Shown here: one piece after another, positions 17,326-31,078 of the stretch | Position numbering within the stretch: position 1 is the stretch's first letter | Layout: every line of letters begins with the position of its first letter | Assembly: GCF_000007185.1 (NCBI RefSeq) | Contig: NC_003551.1 | Coordinates: 270,001-302,000, forward strand | Length of the DNA stretch: 32,000 bases | DNA from: Methanopyrus kandleri AV19 | GTDB lineage: Archaea; JAADCQ01; Methanopyri; Methanopyrales; Methanopyraceae | Direction: 5' to 3' | Program-made: the position numbers and the translations under genes | The notes under the pieces: model-generated | Told to the model about the DNA's origin: nothing | Database searches by the model: none | What the model saw: the letters and a program-made list of their open reading frames with translations, nothing else

Positions 17326-18045
17326 TCACTGTACGTGTCTCAGCTTCCAGCGTTCTAATTCGAGTTTCACGTCGGGGATCTCGTGTTTCCCGTCGAGGGA
17401 TTTCCTACGGTGACGGATCACCTTCCTCAAGTGAGCGGAGTAATGCGCGGGCCAGCCTCCGAGGGTTCTGATCGCGAAGGATTCGAGTCGATCGGGGAGT
17501 TCCTCTAACACGTCCCGGATCCTGGGTGATTCGGAGGGTCGGGCGTCGAACGTCAGCGCGAGCCCTCGTGCGAGTACTCGCCTTGCCCTCTTGTATGGGA
17601 GGTCCGAAACCCCGGTCAGGAGGGTCTTGAGTACCGAGCGGAGGTTGCGCATCAAGTGCCGGGCGAGCTCGAGGACCTCGTTCCGGTCCAGGGAGACGAG
17701 CCATTCGACGAACCGAACACTCTCGTTCTCGGGTTTGCCCAGATAAAGGGTCCTACCGTGCTTGAACTTCGAGTCCCTCCGCCACCTCGCGACGTAGTAC
17801 GGACCGCAGGTACTCCCGCTCACCGTCCGGTAGGTCACCTCGAGGCTCGGCTTCCTCTTCCTCCGATGGACTTCCCTCAGGACTCGGAGTGCCCGAATCC
17901 TCTCGACCGGGTCGGAGGGTATCGGGACGTGCGACTCGATCAACCCCGGTACGCGATCCAGGGTAGTGGCCCCAGATTGTATGGAGGCAGGGGAAAGGCA
18001 GCCTTCCAGGATAAAAGTCTTGCCGTTCGGAAGTCGTGACGTCAA
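17326..18045 (-). CDS. hypothetical basic protein with GPYYVARWR...YLGK motif
   Basis: ORF with coding bias and a TTG start. The motif is reminiscent of the GPYWY...YxGK element found in archaeal mobile-element-associated proteins (from memory, unverified). Confidence 0.55.
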   Translation of the reverse strand: MTSRLPNGKTFILEGCLSPASIQSGATTLDRVPGLIESHVPIPSDPVERIRALRVLREVHRRKRKPSLEVTYRTVSGSTCGPYYVARWRRDSKFKHGRTLYLGKPENESVRFVEWLVSLDRNEVLELARHLMRNLRSVLKTLLTGVSDLPYKRARRVLARGLALTFDARPSESPRIRDVLEELPDRLESFAIRTLGGWPAHYSAHLRKVIRHRRKSLDGKHEIPDVKLELERWKLRHVQ

Positions 18046-21202: not shown

Positions 21203-21416
21203 GGTTTAGGAGTAACGCTAGGCATGCTCTGAGGTTCGAGCTCTACCCATCAGAGCACCTCCGGGCAACCACGCAGGTACCATCTCAACACCGAATTCCA
21301 TTTCCGGTGCAGACCTTATGATGTGTTAATGCGTTTACGAATGCAGGAACCCTCCTACCGACTGGTGAGAACCCATCCCCATTCTCGACGTGACATCTTC
21401 CGAGGGGTCCGAAGCC

Positions 21417-22477
21417 ATGGTCCCGGCACCGCTCGCCCTCGTCCTCTCCACCCTCCTGACGGTTCAACCCGCGAACTCCCTACAATGGAAGGATTGCCCC
21501 TGGATCCAACTTGGACGCCTCTCCTGTGCTACGCAAGGACTAGCTGTGGATTACCCGTACGACCTGGCCGGAGACCACCTGCTGTTGGTCTCACCCCTTT
21601 GGCCGGAGGGTGATCACTACCGCGTGATCTTGGCGGCGTACGGGGTCGAGGAACTCCCGCTGCCCCTCGGGACGAGGGTTCACCGAGTGTTCGTGCCCTC
21701 CGAAGTCCGGCGGGTGCCCTGGAAGCTGTGGGAACAGATACCCGAGAGTCCGAGGCCGGCGACCTTCGGACCGTGGTCCGAGGTCCGGTATTCCCTGAGG
21801 GAATGGGGGTGTCCCCAGGGGTACGTGTTCGATCCGGACGAGTGGGATTGGAGCGAACTCCAATCCTCGCTCGAGCTGGCCGTCCTGCTCGAGCCCGAGC
21901 GGACCGTGGACGGTGTCTTCGCCGTCGAGGCGAGCCTGCCCGTGAGGGAGGACCGGATCGGGAAAGAGCGTTGGATCAGGCTCGCCCTGACCCCGGGCCG
22001 TTGGCTGGTACTGCTCGGTTGGACCGAGGATTTCGACGTGCGCACGCCGTGCAGGACGCTCTTCCGGGGGGCGCGCCCTACGACGAGGCCGAGTACGGGC
22101 TGGACGGCGTGAAACTCCGCTTCTGGGTCGCCGAGTACCTGTTGGACCTGGGAGGGCGGGCGAGGATACCACCGAGCGAGTACTACTCGAGCGTGGCGGG
22201 GTTGTTCGACTTCTTGAATGAGTTACCCGGTGGGTGGGAGTTCCGGCCCGGGTTACAGCACGAGCACCGGTTGTACTACGGGTACGGGGTACTGCTCGAG
22301 GTGCGGGCGGACCGATCGTTGATCGTCGAGTTCAAGGCGCCCGAAGCGGGAAAACGCTTCAGATCGGCCGATACCGTGGACCAGTGGTTCCTTTCAAGCC
22401 GATACATCGCCCGCCACAGCCACCTCCTGGAACCCCTGCGCAAAATCCTCAGAGGTTCGAGACCTGACGGAACGTAG
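21417..22477 (+). pseudogene. exported orphan protein, paralog of 24271..25311, interrupted by a frameshift in a G6 run
   Basis: Signal peptide MVPAPLALVLSTLLTVQPANS. ORFs 21390..22112 and 21728..22477 join at 22066-22071. One extra G would give TLFRGGAPYDEAEYGLDG, colinear with TVFRGRVPYNEVKYDLDG in the paralog. Confidence 0.65.
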
Positions 22478-22595
22478 GTTTCCTCCCGCTATTTCCCGCC
22501 GTCCCAACCCCGTCGCGCGGCGCGTCGACGACCGGTCATGTCCGCCTTCGCTTCAAAGTGTTAACAGTCCGTCCACGCCTCGAGATTTCCAAGAA

Positions 22596-22605
22596 CTTTA
22601 TTTTT
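22596..22605 (+). promoter_or_regulatory. candidate TATA box (CTTTATTTTT) for the transglutaminase-like gene
   Basis: About 36 nt upstream of ATG 22637. Confidence 0.4.
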
Positions 22606-22636
22606 CCACCAGAAAAGTGGGTTGGGTAGCATCGGG

Positions 22637-24210
22637 ATGAAGGTGAAAAGGGTGAGGATCGTCCCGGCCCTCACCCTCGGTGTTCTGGTCTTCGTGCCGA
22701 CCGGTGTCGATGCTCAATGCGGAGCCGAAGTGGTTTCAGTGGGTCGAGGGTTGTGATTGGGCTAAGTACCTCGCAACGCGGGATACACCGATCGTGGACT
22801 GGACAGGTGAGTTGATCGGCGAGAACTGGCGCGCGAACTGGGTCAGGGCCGCCAAGTACATACTATATTGCGCACCGTACAAAGGCGATTCCGTGGAGAA
22901 GGTAAGGCAAGCCTGGTACGGGAGCATCACGCTCGAAGGCCACGTACCCGACAAAGGCGCGCCCGCCAAGTTCGGAGAGGTAGACTGGAGCGACAAGAGA
23001 CCGGACATGCGTTACATTGGTCTCGCGTTTGACTACTTCGACCCTGTGTTCGACTTCCTCCACGTGCCGGAGGATCTGAGGAGAACCATGAGAAGGCTAG
23101 CCGAGCTGATGGTAGGGCTCGGAAAAGTTTCGGAGCGAGAGTACGCCGAGTCGATACTCAAAGATGAGTATATGCCTCCCAGGAGCGGGGAGCCCTCCAG
23201 GAGCAGGGAGTACGAGATACGTAACGGGCAGTACTGGTTACCTGGGGAGTGGTGTTGGATAACCCTGAACGGCACCTCGCTTTATGGTAAGGTAGCGAAA
23301 TCCCCGGCCCAACCGTTTCCGAACGCCGGTGAGGCTGAGAGGAAACTCATGAACAACAACCCGATGTTCCAGGCAGCCGTCCGACTAGCGTACTGGGTGG
23401 CCACGCACATACCGTTCATCGGGTGGTTCAACTGGTTCCCCCTCGCCGGGTACTGTGGCCACCTCAGCCCGATGTACTACGAGGGGCCGGCGGCGCCACT
23501 ACTCTTCCCGGATGAGGGTTGGGTGTGCACGGACCACGCAGTGCTCACGGTAGCCCTTTACCGGGCCGCGGGGATCCCGGGGTACGTCGGCGGTGAACTC
23601 GAACCGTTTGGAGATCACTCATGGACGGCCGTACGACGAAGGTAGCGGTTGGCACGAGATCTTCATCGACCCAACCGGGCCCATGATGCACAAACCTTGG
23701 AAGATCCGGGACAGCGTGGTACTAGTACCGAAACACAAACCGATGAACGACGATGAGTACGCTTGTGCGTCATCCCAGCGCCCGTACGACATGCTCAGTG
23801 AGGCCGTCCGCGACGCGATCTCACGGTTCGTTAGTCCGGAGACTATGGAAAGGTTGAAAATCGCTTGGGACGGGCTTAAGGGATTGAGTATAGGGTTGAT
23901 GATGGAGAGGTTCATCTACACGAACTTCCTCACGGCGCAGGGTGTATCTAAGCTCATTGACAAGCTGTTCTTCGGCGGGAATCTTGAGTTCGAGATCGGG
24001 AACTGGTTTGACAGAGTCCGCAGGTTCCCAGGATGGGACGCGAGTGAAGACGGCGTAGAACGACGGTGGCGTGCTTTCAAGAGCGAGTGGGCGAGGTGGA
24101 GAGTCAAGGAGAGGGAGCCCAAGAAGAGCCCGACGATCTGGGTGATCATCCTAGCGGGCTCACTCGCCCCGCTGGCTTGGTTCCGGGGCGCACGGGGGGT
24201 GATCCGGTGA
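22637..24210 (+). pseudogene. secreted transglutaminase-fold Cys-His-Asp protein with C-terminal anchor; two frame interruptions
   Basis: The signal peptide MKVKRVRIVPALTLGVLVFVPTGVDA is in frame 2 and the body from 22680 is in frame 0. Core motifs are GWVCTDHAVLTVALYRAAGIP (Cys 23526-28) and GDHSWTA (His 23616-18). After a +1 shift at about 23628-23632 comes YDEGSGWHEIFIDPTG (Asp 23668-70). C-terminal SPTIWVIILAGSLAPLAWFRGARGVIR. Confidence 0.7.
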
Positions 24211-24270
24211 TCCTCCTCGTCCTCACCGCTCTCCTAACCCTCCCATACGACGTGACGGCCCCTTTTACCC

Positions 24271-25311
24271 GTGGAAGCACCGTGGGTGATGGATCCAGAG
24301 CTTTACCAAAGCCATACCGTACAGTTCGAAGGTAGTGGTATCCCGCCCGCGAGACCGTCGGACCCCAACGCGTTCCAGGCCGATCGTTTCCTACTCGTGG
24401 CACCGCTCTGGAACGAGGAAGGGCGTCACCGCGTGATCATCGGTGCGTACCGTACCGAGACGGTACCTCTACCCGAGGACGCTAAGGTGTGCCGAGTACT
24501 GGTGCCGGATCGCGTGGAGGTCGTAGAAACGGATAACCCGTTCTCGGACGAGCGAGGGGATCCCGCCTGGGGAATTCTCAGTGCTCCAAGACACTTCAAG
24601 AAGCCCGTTCCGACGGGACCCTGGCACGAGGTGAAGTACACTTTGGAGGAGCATGATGGCATTCTGCTCATCAGGCCCGAGCGGACCGCGGACGACATCT
24701 TCGCCGCCGAGGCGGACTTACCCACGCGCGACGGGTGGGTCAGGATCGCCCTAACACCGGGGAACTGGTTGGTGTTACTGGGATGGTCCAAGGAGTTCAA
24801 CCTACTGACGGTCGACGGCAAGACCGTTTTCCGGGGACGAGTGCCCTACAACGAGGTCAAGTACGATCTGGATGGTGTAAGCATGGTCTTTTGGTACTGC
24901 GGATACGCAATCGACTTGAAGGGTTACAAATGGTTCAAAGACGTTTTCAACTCTGGGACATCTCGGGAATGCTGGCTTATGTTACATTACATAGATAATT
25001 TGGTGTCATCAAAAAGTAATAAAGCCAGCACGGACATTCTTAACTTTCATCCTTTGTTGCAATATAAGATAGGAATTCTATATGGACCAGGGATAATTTT
25101 GAGAATTAATACTAGAAATCCGATAATTATCGAGTTTAAAGCGCCGAAACCTAGGGATTACATTAAGTATGGATATAAAGAATTTTACTCAGATAAGTAT
25201 TGGAGTAATTCCCTAAGTCCATTAGAAGTTATTGTAAGTCAGATATTGTACGGTGTAATATGTCCAGTAATAACTCCGCCGATCCTATTAATACACAGAA
25301 GGCGTCGCTAG
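24271..25311 (+). CDS. orphan surface protein (paralog of 21417..22477) with C-terminal anchor; 3' third encoded in low-GC DNA
   Basis: About half the residues are identical to the paralog in hand-aligned blocks (FLLVAPLW, RVIIGAY, VPLP, IALTPGNWLVLLGW, IIEFKAP). C-terminal CPVITPPILLIHRRRR. A likely signal peptide is out of frame upstream (GTG 24207). Confidence 0.7.
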   Translation: MEAPWVMDPELYQSHTVQFEGSGIPPARPSDPNAFQADRFLLVAPLWNEEGRHRVIIGAYRTETVPLPEDAKVCRVLVPDRVEVVETDNPFSDERGDPAWGILSAPRHFKKPVPTGPWHEVKYTLEEHDGILLIRPERTADDIFAAEADLPTRDGWVRIALTPGNWLVLLGWSKEFNLLTVDGKTVFRGRVPYNEVKYDLDGVSMVFWYCGYAIDLKGYKWFKDVFNSGTSRECWLMLHYIDNLVSSKSNKASTDILNFHPLLQYKIGILYGPGIILRINTRNPIIIEFKAPKPRDYIKYGYKEFYSDKYWSNSLSPLEVIVSQILYGVICPVITPPILLIHRRRR

Positions 25312-25630
25312 AGACGGGGGTGCGAAGTGATGTTACGACTAGCGTTAACTACGGATATAGTAGCCCTTACGGTAGTTTTAGGTACCCACGCTTCCCCCGT
25401 TGATGACTGCATTAAGCTACATAACAATACACTCTCTAGGGTCGATGAAATTCATAATAAGCTGAATAATTTGTTAAATAAACTGGAAGAGTGTGAGAAA
25501 AAGAACGTTGACCTATCGAGTGAAAAGCATGATATACGTTTGTCCTTGAAGTACCTTGAGGAAGCTAAAGAAGTACTCTCTAGGGATAGAAGTAACTTAG
25601 AATAGTCGAAATCTAAGTATAATTCTATTA
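24960..25630. other. low-GC tract (about 28-35% GC by hand count) spanning the 3' end of one gene, the spacer, and the 5' end of the next
   Basis: Lines 24961, 25021, 25081 and 25561 count 20, 21, 17 and 20 G+C per 60 nt. Flanking lines are 50-65% or higher. Confidence 0.8.
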
Positions 25631-26193
25631 AGGATGGTGATCGAAAGGAGCGTCTTCTGGCGGAGATCATGGACGGTAGCAGCGGTCTCAGCATGTGTTT
25701 TCACCTCGTCCATGAGATCGGTAGGAAGTTGGATGATGTGGAGGATATCGTTGACGACGCGATCAGGTTGTGTGATGAGTTCTTGCAGGATAAGTTGGAC
25801 GTTGACGAGTTTAAGAAGAGATTGGATGATATGCTGACGCGCGGTGGGGGTATCGTGGGGAACTCGGGGGACGTGAAGGACGCGGCCTACTCGATCGAGC
25901 AGGCGGTCGAGGCCACCGTCGCTCGGGTGAGCGATCTACTGGAGAAGTGGTCCAGGGAGGACGAGTCGAAGGCTCGGTACGAGCGGTTGAAGGATAAGCT
26001 CGAGGGGCTACGCGGGTGGGTGTTCGGCGGTCTGGCACTCTCGCTGCTCGCAGGCGTCCTAGTACAACTGGCACCGCAGGAGGCCAAGACGACACTGTTG
26101 CAGGCGTTGAGCGCGATCACCCAGGTACTCGCGGTAGTACTACAGCTGGTCCAGGTGCTCCACGGGCTGCTACCGGTACCGATCTCGGCCTGA
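25330..26193 (+). pseudogene. signal/anchor + long coiled-coil + C-terminal membrane hairpin protein, interrupted by one in-frame TAG
   Basis: ORFs 25327..25605 and 25669..26193 are in the same frame and are separated only by TAG 25603-25605. GGGGGTG SD lies 7 nt before ATG 25330. Confidence 0.6.
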
Positions 26194-29494: not shown

Positions 29495-29529
29495 ATCGTA
29501 TTGTTATGGGTTACGTAACAATTTCAAAG

Positions 29530-29603
29530 TGGGCCCGCCGGGATTTGAACCCGGGACCACCGGCTCGTCAGGCCGGCGTTCTGCCGGGCTGAACTGCGGG
29601 CCC
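29530..29603 (-). tRNA. tRNA-Val (anticodon GAC), no encoded CCA, C at position 8
   Basis: Hand-folded: GGGCCCG/CGGGCCC acceptor, GTTC/GAAC D stem, CCGGC-CTGACGA-GCCGG anticodon arm, CCGGG-TTCAAAT-CCCGG T arm. Confidence 0.88.
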
Positions 29604-29622
29604 GTCCCCGCCACAGTTGAGG

Positions 29623-31078
29623 TCACTTCTCCCGGTATTTGAGTCTTATGCCCCGGACGGAGCCTCCGAGCGCCTTCAGCGCCCTCTCCGTCCTCTCGGC
29701 CTTGGCCCGGGAGTAGGCGAACCCCACGTCGCTCAGGAACCGCATCACGTCCTCCCGACCGCAGATGAAGAGGCGTTCCGTCACCCTCACCTTACCGTCC
29801 TCCGTCGTGTAACACCGCTCCCGGTTCAGGCCCCATCTACAGCCCGCGACCTCCTCCAACATCTCACCGATCTCGGTCATGAAGAGGTGCAGGGAACCCA
29901 GGTACACGGCCGACTTCGCCTGGGTCAGGCCGATCGCGTACCGACCGTCGGACCCCGTCAGCCATCCGTCCGCCCCGAAGAGACCGGCGAGGAACTCGGC
30001 CTTGACGCCGGGAGGCGCGCGCAGGATCCACCCGGGTACCCCGTAGACGCGCTCGACCTTCGGGCTTCGGGGCATCCCGAGGAGCTCCAGGTAGCGGGCG
30101 AAGGCGCGCGAGTGCACGTGGAGCTCGACCATGTCCTTCGTGTCCCACCGTCTGAGACCCGTCCCGACGCCGAGCGTGGCGAGGTCGTCGGCGAGGTCAC
30201 GGAGACCCTCGGGTTCGCCGGCGAAAGTCAGCCGCAGTTGTCCGTCGATCTCGTGGAGGCTACCGTCGCCGAGGGCGTACCCGAGCACGCGGGCGAGGAG
30301 CGGGATCTTGTGGTCGTCGAGCGCGATCGGGAGGAGACCGCGGCGTCGGAGGTAGGTCCCCTGTCGGTCCGGGAGCCCGGGATCCCGGAGGACGGGTTCA
30401 GGCGGGTCGGAGACCGGTTCGGCCCGGAGTCGCTCGATCCGATGGTCCAGTCGGGTCCCGAGACGGTGGGCCTCGCGCCGCTTGCGGGTGTGGTACGGGA
30501 ACCCGACGTCGGTGAGGAACCCGTGGACGTGGGTGTCCCCGTCGATATGGAGATGGGTGCGGAGGTACTCGCGTCCGGAGGGGCCGGTGGCGACGGCGTG
30601 GACCCCGAGGGTCACCAGGAGGTCCAGGACGTCCCGCATGAAGGCCGCGAGCCCGTCCCGGTGGCGGGCGGGTGAGGTCATCGTCAGGGTGACGCGCGGC
30701 GTGGTCGGGGGAGCTGTCGGCGATGGAGGCCCGGGCGTCGAAGAGACCGGAGAGGTAGGCGGCCTTGAGGTGGGTCGGGACGCGGTGAACGGCGTCGGGA
30801 ACCCTCGGTCCGGTCTCGCGTCGGGGGCCGAGGGGGAGGCCGAGCCGGAGGAGCTCGTCGGCGACAGTCTTGGAGTCGATCTTGAGGGCTCGGGGTTCCG
30901 TCTGGTGGGCGATGTCCAGGGCGCGGAGGTCCCGTCGTAGTCCCTCGAGGGCTCCGGGGTCCACGGCGATGCGCACGCGGCGGACGGTGGTGTTCCGGTC
31001 CCGACGGCGGTACTCGGTGATGGAGCCGCGGGCGGAGACGTAACCCAACACGCGAAACAGTTCGGGGTTGTGTTCCAT
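29623..31078 (-). pseudogene. free-standing LAGLIDADG-family protein with four LAGLIDADG-type motifs, one frameshift
   Basis: Motifs are LFRVLGYVSARGSI, YLSGLFDARASI, LARVLGYALGDGSL and FLAGLFGADGWL. ORFs 30398..31078 and 29623..30681 join at the GCCGCGCG repeat (plus strand 30691-30700). Confidence 0.72.

Follow-up and report, generated by a model that had tools for sequence, protein, structure and literature searches.

A disrupted transglutaminase-like gene of Methanopyrus kandleri AV19 and its small family of putative extracellular thiol enzymes

Does the archaeon Methanopyrus kandleri AV19, which is enclosed by a pseudomurein wall, export a Cys-His-Asp enzyme of the transglutaminase fold, and could such an enzyme cut or form the cross-links of that wall? 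The question was raised by a first-pass annotation of a transglutaminase-like gene at 22637-24210 on the forward strand of a 32,000-nt stretch of AV19 DNA (the window, to which all coordinates refer). No enzyme has yet been assigned to the extracellular cross-linking of pseudomurein, a step for which the literature proposes exported transglutaminase-like proteins as candidates. We find that a single disrupted gene underlies the annotated genes MK0303 and MK0304 and a 5' leader that is unannotated, its three pieces, and that the frameshifts between the pieces are real lesions of the DNA, absent from intact orthologues. The family to which the gene belongs is one of putative extracellular thiol peptidases or transamidases; in AV19 this locus most probably yields no such enzyme.

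Three pieces of one gene

The gene is laid out in three overlapping open reading frames (ORFs) in different frames, joined by two frameshifts of the +1 type near 22715 and 23631; the first-pass annotation, too, had spoken of two frameshifts. Dropping one base at ~22715 and one at ~23631 in silico yields the repaired protein, which is continuous over 523 amino acids (aa) and has no internal stops. The elements of the gene are the following:

22597..22605 (+): possible archaeal TATA-like box, TTTATTTTT, ~35 nt 5' of the ATG, proposed from a reading of the sequence alone
22637..22714 (+): segment A, the ATG and a Sec-type signal peptide, MKVKRVRIVPALTLGVLVFVPTGVDA, matched in the alignments by those of P0002 and P0062, two intact homologues
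22712..22725 (+): frameshift 1, +1 type (one base extra or two missing), between ...VDA and (N)AEPKWFQW; not a homopolymer
22716..23630 (+): segment B, MK0303 (AAM01520.1 / WP_148679447.1), with an N-terminal domain under strong conservation and the first portion of the transglutaminase core
23517-23540 (+): motif GWVCTDHA, Cys codon at 23526-23528
23562-23579 (+): motif RAAGIP, in segment B
23613-23630 (+): motif DHSWTA, His codon at 23616-23618
23628..23634 (+): frameshift 2, +1 type, between ...HSWTA and YDEGSGW
23632..24210 (+): segment C, MK0304 (AAM01521.1 / WP_148679448.1), with the Asp, a fast-evolving C-terminal region, the anchor and a basic tail
23647-23679 (+): motif GWHEIFIDPTG, in segment C, Asp codon at 23668-23670
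24127-24183 (+): C-terminal hydrophobic anchor, SPTIWVIILAGSLAPLAWF, followed by the basic tail and the stop codon at 24208-24210

Sigma-70 promoter scans are inapplicable to archaeal promoters.

Read from the ATG at 22637, frame A runs on out of frame and ends at a TGA (22754-22756) after 39 codons. Frame B is open over 22680-23645 and carries GWVCTDHA, RAAGIP and DHSWTA, and frame C is open over 23593-24210. The frame-specific GC content of third codon positions (GC3) tracks the same order, A to B to C, and all three segments are still coding-like. The four motifs named by the first-pass annotation are all present where it had placed them, and its proposal of an N-terminal signal peptide and a C-terminal membrane anchor agrees with the hydropathy profile: just two segments of the repaired protein, residues 3-26 and 497-518, pass the Kyte-Doolittle threshold. 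In AV19 the Cys and His codons lie in the MK0303 frame, the Asp codon in the MK0304 frame and the signal peptide in a third, and no uninterrupted frame holds all the catalytic residues. With the triad split in this way, and with neither MK0303 nor MK0304 carrying the signal peptide, no active ecto-enzyme would be expected in AV19. Frameshift 2 coincides with the 'VFV' of the homologues, which have TAVFVYD where AV19 has TA|YD, and its position would fit an out-of-frame deletion.

Exact look-up of the deposited proteins returned the title 'Predicted cysteine protease of the transglutaminase-like superfamily' for AAM01520.1, which is MK0303 by the numbering of its neighbours, and 'Uncharacterized protein' for AAM01521.1 (MK0304), the same protein as WP_148679448.1. 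These annotations have been on record since 2002, and the fold assignment is thus ~24 years old. GenBank and RefSeq enter MK0303 and MK0304 as two ordinary proteins with no hint of one gene, an annotation that is corrected here, and a literature search on pseudogenes and frameshifts of M. kandleri returned nothing relevant. Already known, then, are the fold annotation and the idea of a wall function for exported transglutaminases; new are the one-gene origin of MK0303 and MK0304, a tiny family so far confined to Methanopyri, its conserved partner genes and its repeated inactivation.

Fold, topology and putative chemistry

Membership of the transglutaminase-like superfamily, a grouping that Makarova, Aravind and Koonin reportedly treated in 1999, is well supported. 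The Pfam model PF01841 (Transglut_core) matched the repaired protein with 25.5 bits (E = 1.7e-5; curated cut-off 23) and the homologues P0002, P0014, P0016, P0018 and the protein of locus L009 with 36-56 bits. Residues C297, H327 and D344 do not vary within the family (alignments A1 and A2) and stand in the canonical Cys-His-Asp order; among the 31 superfamily sequences of alignment A3, Cys and His never change and Asp is kept in at least 90%. Of the two Pfam checks proposed in the first-pass annotation, the transglutaminase-core profile scored above its cut-off with the triad aligned, and the Peptidase_C71 profile was unmatched. An NCBIfam scan of the repaired protein returned no family.

The family itself appears small and has so far been seen in Methanopyri alone. 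Among 1.84 billion representative proteins, a profile search returned 11 with E < 1e-10; the next tier (E ~1e-6 to 1e-4) consisted of the general transglutaminase-like superfamily, matched over the core only. In the representative-protein searches no whole-protein orthologue was found outside Methanopyri-type loci, Methanobacteriales included. For the N-terminal domain (~200 aa) and the C-terminal region (~150 aa), searches of Pfam, NCBIfam, the Protein Data Bank (PDB) and representative proteins detected no relatives outside the family.

The core domain was modeled from the 31-sequence alignment (pLDDT 74.7, pTM 0.72). The model displays the arrangement expected of the fold, with a helix that begins at the Cys, followed by strands bearing the His and the Asp, and it agrees with the fold and triad proposed in the first-pass annotation. 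Its best Foldseek matches in the PDB were 3isr, TgpA (6g49), 4xz7, TglA (9crn) and factor XIIIa, with probabilities of 0.97-1.00; arylamine N-acetyltransferases came next after the transglutaminase-like proteins. A sequence search of the PDB with the family profile gave a sole match, again TgpA, at E = 0.66.

TgpA is a multi-span membrane protein, in contrast to the repaired M. kandleri protein with its one C-terminal anchor. Across the aligned core, the repaired protein is 27% identical to the periplasmic domain of Pseudomonas aeruginosa TgpA (PDB 6g49), and the putative cysteine protease of Cytophaga hutchinsonii (PDB 3isr) is likewise among the best fold matches of the core model; unlike both, the AV19 copy is frameshifted. 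The catalytic domain of TgpA lies outside the cytoplasmic membrane (PMC3507681), as predicted for the M. kandleri protein.

For the intact form, represented by the 456-aa P0002 and the 425-aa L009 protein, we propose the following mode of action. The protein, in which a transglutaminase core lies between a highly conserved N-terminal domain and a C-terminal region that varies, would be exported by the Sec route, lose its signal peptide and be tethered outside the membrane by the C-terminal helix with its basic tail. In line with the established chemistry of the superfamily, the nucleophile would be the thiolate of the Cys that opens the helix; it would attack the carbonyl of a peptide or isopeptide bond, or a Gln carboxamide, to give a thioester, the His, oriented by the Asp, would serve as base, and the acyl-enzyme would be resolved by water, as in a peptidase or isopeptidase, or by an amine, as in a transamidase. 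Since the predicted catalytic domain faces the wall, the substrate is most likely an envelope component, such as pseudomurein stem peptides or surface proteins.

Nature and age of the two frameshifts

Three Logan assemblies (ERR9765742, ERR9765746 and ERR9765749) and the metagenome-assembled genome (MAG) contig DUJS01000004.1 are 100% identical to the window across 22401-24400, both frameshift sites included. Over the up to 6.9 kb compared, the single difference is a run of G at 22066-22071 in the upstream gene, which has six G in the window and five in the other assemblies. That discrepancy suits the view that the frameshifts are sequencing or assembly errors of the 2002 Sanger genome and that the gene is intact in the organism, in that it shows either an imperfect reference or a variable run. 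The transglutaminase-like gene, however, has no homopolymer at either frameshift site, and four separately assembled contigs match the window over the whole gene; a sequencing error is therefore very unlikely, indeed barely credible, and the frameshifts are real DNA lesions. The first-pass annotation had treated them as something to be repaired; the repair succeeds in silico, whereas the evidence marks the shifts as genuine, the same in four assemblies.

Intact orthologues exist. P0002 (456 aa, locus L008) and the L009 protein (425 aa) are each encoded in a single frame across both AV19 lesion sites. Other relatives are broken, each in its own manner. Locus L005, 99% identical to the intact L009, has a C-to-T change that turns Gln298 into a stop, and the 90% cluster of L005 holds 425-aa as well as 297-aa or 272-aa forms, on long contigs. 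L006 has one A too many in a run of A, L007 is frameshifted, and L014, whose product P0014 is the closest to the AV19 protein (63% identity in A2), has at least four frame changes from one- and two-base indels. Judged by their sequences, the broken alleles look like repeated, independent loss.

The comparison bears directly on a second alternative, in which the gene is functional in AV19 and its full-length 523-aa product arises through two programmed +1 ribosomal frameshifts or through transcriptional slippage. Both shifts are of the +1 type, coding periodicity is kept in all three segments and the repaired reading is free of stops; moreover, the zero frame at site 2 reads GTA CGA CGA AGG TAG, a run of Arg codons before a stop that could in principle stall the ribosome. 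Yet programmed shifts are normally conserved, and both L008 and L009 read through the two sites in a single frame, whereas the disruptions in L005, L006, L007 and L014 differ in kind and position. Because the orthologues have no conserved shift and the other alleles are broken elsewhere and in other ways, the frameshifts do not appear to be programmed. The neighbouring genes, too, are broken by unrelated lesions (one nonsense, one poly-G frameshift), and no slippery motif is common to both sites. Recoding in AV19 is thus decidedly improbable.

Two candidate signals of recoding were considered and rejected. A shared slippery motif reduced to the trivial 5-mer CGAAG, all that the two sites have in common. 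Frameshift 1 of AV19 and one of the L014 frameshifts both fall just after the signal peptide; they run in opposite directions, and given the number of L014 lesions the coincidence is not significant (rough estimate ~0.16).

Before its disruption the gene was apparently under long-term purifying selection. Compared with L008, dN/dS is ~0.25, and a 70-codon N-terminal block, WAKYLATRDTPIVDWTGELIGENWRANW.RAAKYILYCAPYKGDSV.KVRQAWYGSITLEGHVP (window 22760-22970, residues ~42-111), retains 94% protein identity at 63% identity of third codon positions. This block is held more tightly than the interval with the catalytic core (pN 0.15 vs 0.28) and could be a binding module, to which no specificity is assigned. 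Beyond the two shifts the AV19 copy has no further lesions (523 codons free of stops, GC3 periodicity intact), for which reason we regard it as probably a young pseudogene, recently inactivated after long constraint.

Several points weigh against this reading of a young pseudogene from a family of exported thiol enzymes. Being identical to the window, the four assemblies that confirm the lesions may represent the same strain resequenced rather than natural variants. Both lesions shift in the same direction, the segments are otherwise clean and a TATA-like element is present, so that recoding keeps a small probability. As to the protein, the full-length AlphaFold model, built from 7 sequences, was unusable (pLDDT 42) and uninformative on the N- and C-terminal domains; the Foldseek E-values of the core model are marginal (~1e-3); and the family's substrate is assigned by inference.

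Pseudomurein enzymes and the gene cluster

PeiW and PeiP, the pseudomurein endoisopeptidases of the Methanothermobacter proviruses psiM100 and psiM2 (MEROPS C71, PF12386), also come from a pseudomurein host lineage and share with the family the Cys-His-Asp thiol fold of the papain/transglutaminase superfamily, as is already in the literature for Pei (PMC2989375). The first-pass annotation had invoked them and had raised a provirus origin as a possibility, in which case the gene would be the remnant of a Pei-type (C71) lysin; a low-GC patch adjoining the gene does hint at a mosaic or accessory locus. The likeness holds at the level of the common superfamily fold, and the profiles point to nothing closer. 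PF12386 and the pseudomurein-binding repeat model PF09373 (PMBR) were unmatched at E <= 1 by the repaired protein and five homologues, while the PeiW control from prophage psiM100 scored 295.9 bits with Peptidase_C71 and 130.5 bits with PMBR. An hhalign comparison of A1 with PeiW aligned 30 columns around the Cys (E = 0.13, probability 0.4%). In architecture, the catalytic domain of PeiW is preceded by four pseudomurein-binding repeats; the M. kandleri protein has none, and its signal peptide and membrane anchor speak for host-type export, unlike PeiW.

The provirus origin itself found no support. No relatives were detected in 50,697 phage records (tblastn) or in IMG/VR contigs (pattern-seeded search), the genes of the cluster had no PHROG matches, and no tRNA genes or att-like repeats flank the cluster. 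The M. kandleri gene is chromosomal, lies outside any provirus among neighbours that include housekeeping genes, and belongs to a cluster that is likewise chromosomal and syntenic in several Methanopyri MAGs. Descent from a Pei-type provirus lysin is accordingly extremely unlikely.

A different proposal is that the ancestral intact enzyme neither acted as a hydrolase nor modified proteins but was a, or the, transamidase by which Methanopyri cross-link their pseudomurein. Pseudomurein producers have no known transpeptidase of the penicillin-binding protein (PBP) type, and exported transglutaminases have already been put forward as the cross-linkers by Leahy et al. 2010, Subedi et al. 2021 and Lupo et al. 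2025 (PMC2812497, PMC10117817 and PMC11915815). The predicted position of the repaired protein's catalytic domain outside the membrane and the restriction of the family, so far, to Methanopyri agree with such a role. Against it, AV19 builds a pseudomurein wall although the gene is broken, which makes the gene dispensable, and alleles have been inactivated repeatedly in relatives. The protein has no pseudomurein-binding repeats, recognised wall-biosynthesis genes are absent beside the gene in the loci examined, and the searches found no whole-protein orthologue in the Methanobacteriales, makers of the same polymer. A wall role of the family is plausible from its predicted topology; because the gene is broken in AV19 it is not an essential cross-linker, and we consider it unlikely that its ancestor was the cross-linking transamidase.

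The candidates of Lupo et al. 2025 form the orthogroup OG0000044 (PMC11915815). Like the M. kandleri gene, they combine PF01841 with a Sec signal peptide in a pseudomurein methanogen, and the two members from Methanopyrus sp. KOL6 are also without pseudomurein-binding (PMB) repeats; many other members have PMB repeats and glycosidase-like domains. Unlike these candidates, the AV19 copy is broken, and its close relatives were found in Methanopyri loci alone and not across pseudomurein producers. WP_148679447, AAM01520 and MK0303 are not among the supplementary tables of that study, whose ten genomes do not include AV19. Judging solely from the two KOL6 members, AV19 may have other, intact transglutaminase-like genes.

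The search for the cross-linking enzyme gains a small negative finding: the type strain bears a wall, yet in it an exported transglutaminase-like gene specific to Methanopyri is disrupted. The intact orthologues of 456 and 425 aa, with their conserved partner genes, are the right material for sacculus tests of the family, and an assay for cleavage of the epsilon-Ala-Lys isopeptide by Pei exists, with synthetic Ala-epsilon-Lys and gamma-Glu peptides as substrates for PeiW and PeiP (PMC4592898).

The partner genes lie on either side of the transglutaminase-like gene in AV19:

21390..22477 (+): upstream paralogue of MK0305, of unassigned family, with a hydrophobic, signal-peptide-like N-terminus and a frameshift at the poly-G run 22066-22071
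24271..25311 (+): MK0305, intact, hydrophobic over a stretch at the C-terminal end and then basic in its tail; the conserved partner 3' of the transglutaminase-like gene
25327..26193 (+): gene of a charged protein rich in helix, which by eye resembles a coiled coil and is hydrophobic in its C-terminal region; interrupted by an in-frame TAG at 25603-25605

Damage is not confined to the transglutaminase-like gene, which is hit twice: three of the four genes of the AV19 cluster are affected, the upstream paralogue at its poly-G and the coiled-coil gene by the TAG, which replaces a Trp of the L006 homologue. The poly-G run (G6 in the window, G5 in the four other assemblies) would be in frame with G4 or G7, by a reading of the sequence, and could be a slippage-prone tract or a reference error. 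In the annotation, the 3' part of the coiled-coil gene is MK0306 (25669-26193), to which newer records add a 91-aa 5' ORF. The larger ORFs scanned elsewhere in the window gave full-length Pfam domain matches. Multiple lesions in linked neighbours look like what is expected of a module that has turned dispensable.

The cluster is met again in MAGs of Methanopyri and in metagenome contigs. A gene of the MK0305 family stands 3' of the transglutaminase-like gene in L005, L006, L009 and L014, and a gene for a coiled-coil membrane protein of the MK0306 family adjoins it in L006, L008, L015 and L017. Pfam assigned no family to the MK0305-family proteins or to the L006 coiled-coil homologue. The homoserine dehydrogenase of L017 is 80% identical to that of Methanopyrus sp. 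(next best ~51%), by which L017 would be a relative of Methanopyrus. At the more distant Methanopyri-type loci (L015 7771-8625; L017 6195-6854 and 9681-10754), the coiled-coil homologue (28-30% identity) again adjoins the transglutaminase-like gene, and L017 has a second PF01841 gene a few kb off.

One might take the transglutaminase-like, MK0305-family and MK0306-family genes together as a Methanopyri-specific envelope-remodelling module that is turned on and off by mutation. Pseudomurein peptides might be trimmed or cross-linked by it, or surface proteins attached to the wall, and its repeated mutational switch-off would mark a function that is dispensable or serves for contingencies, with viruses or the environment perhaps supplying the pressure. 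More boldly, AV19 might still express it by recoding at the two sites. We offer this as a speculation that is more probably wrong than right, and by a wide distance.

Low-GC patches occur inside the cluster, at 24800-25800 of the window (32-47%) and at 6200-8200 of L009 (29-45%), in surroundings of ~60%. They span different genes in the AV19 and L009 lineages, which suggests mosaic or recombined segments. A few kb 5' of the cluster, the window encodes a DUF1678 protein (PF07913, E = 2e-102; 17326-18045, reverse strand), and a DUF1678 gene likewise lies upstream in L014 (124-657, reverse strand); the wider region would thus be partly syntenic between AV19 and L014. A scan of species-representative genomes returned two MAG loci and not M. 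kandleri, though both patterns occur in the window; the stretch may be masked there, or a different genome may serve as the representative.

Among the surrounding genes of the window are those for phosphoglycerate dehydrogenase (SerA), an RsmB-type methyltransferase, a polyferredoxin and the DUF1678 protein, and the tRNA genes closest to the cluster occupy 2615-2692 and 29529-29603 (tRNA-Val). A second low-GC stretch (0.438) occupies 1-1000, over an ORF at 79-1053. Beside the tRNA-Val gene, a 352-aa ORF with a LAGLIDADG_3 match (E = 4e-11) at 29623-30681 on the reverse strand runs antisense to an ORF of equal length at 29617-30675 on the forward strand; it may be a homing endonuclease or intein-related gene, and the adjoining 1-kb bin, 30001-31000, has a GC content of 0.717.

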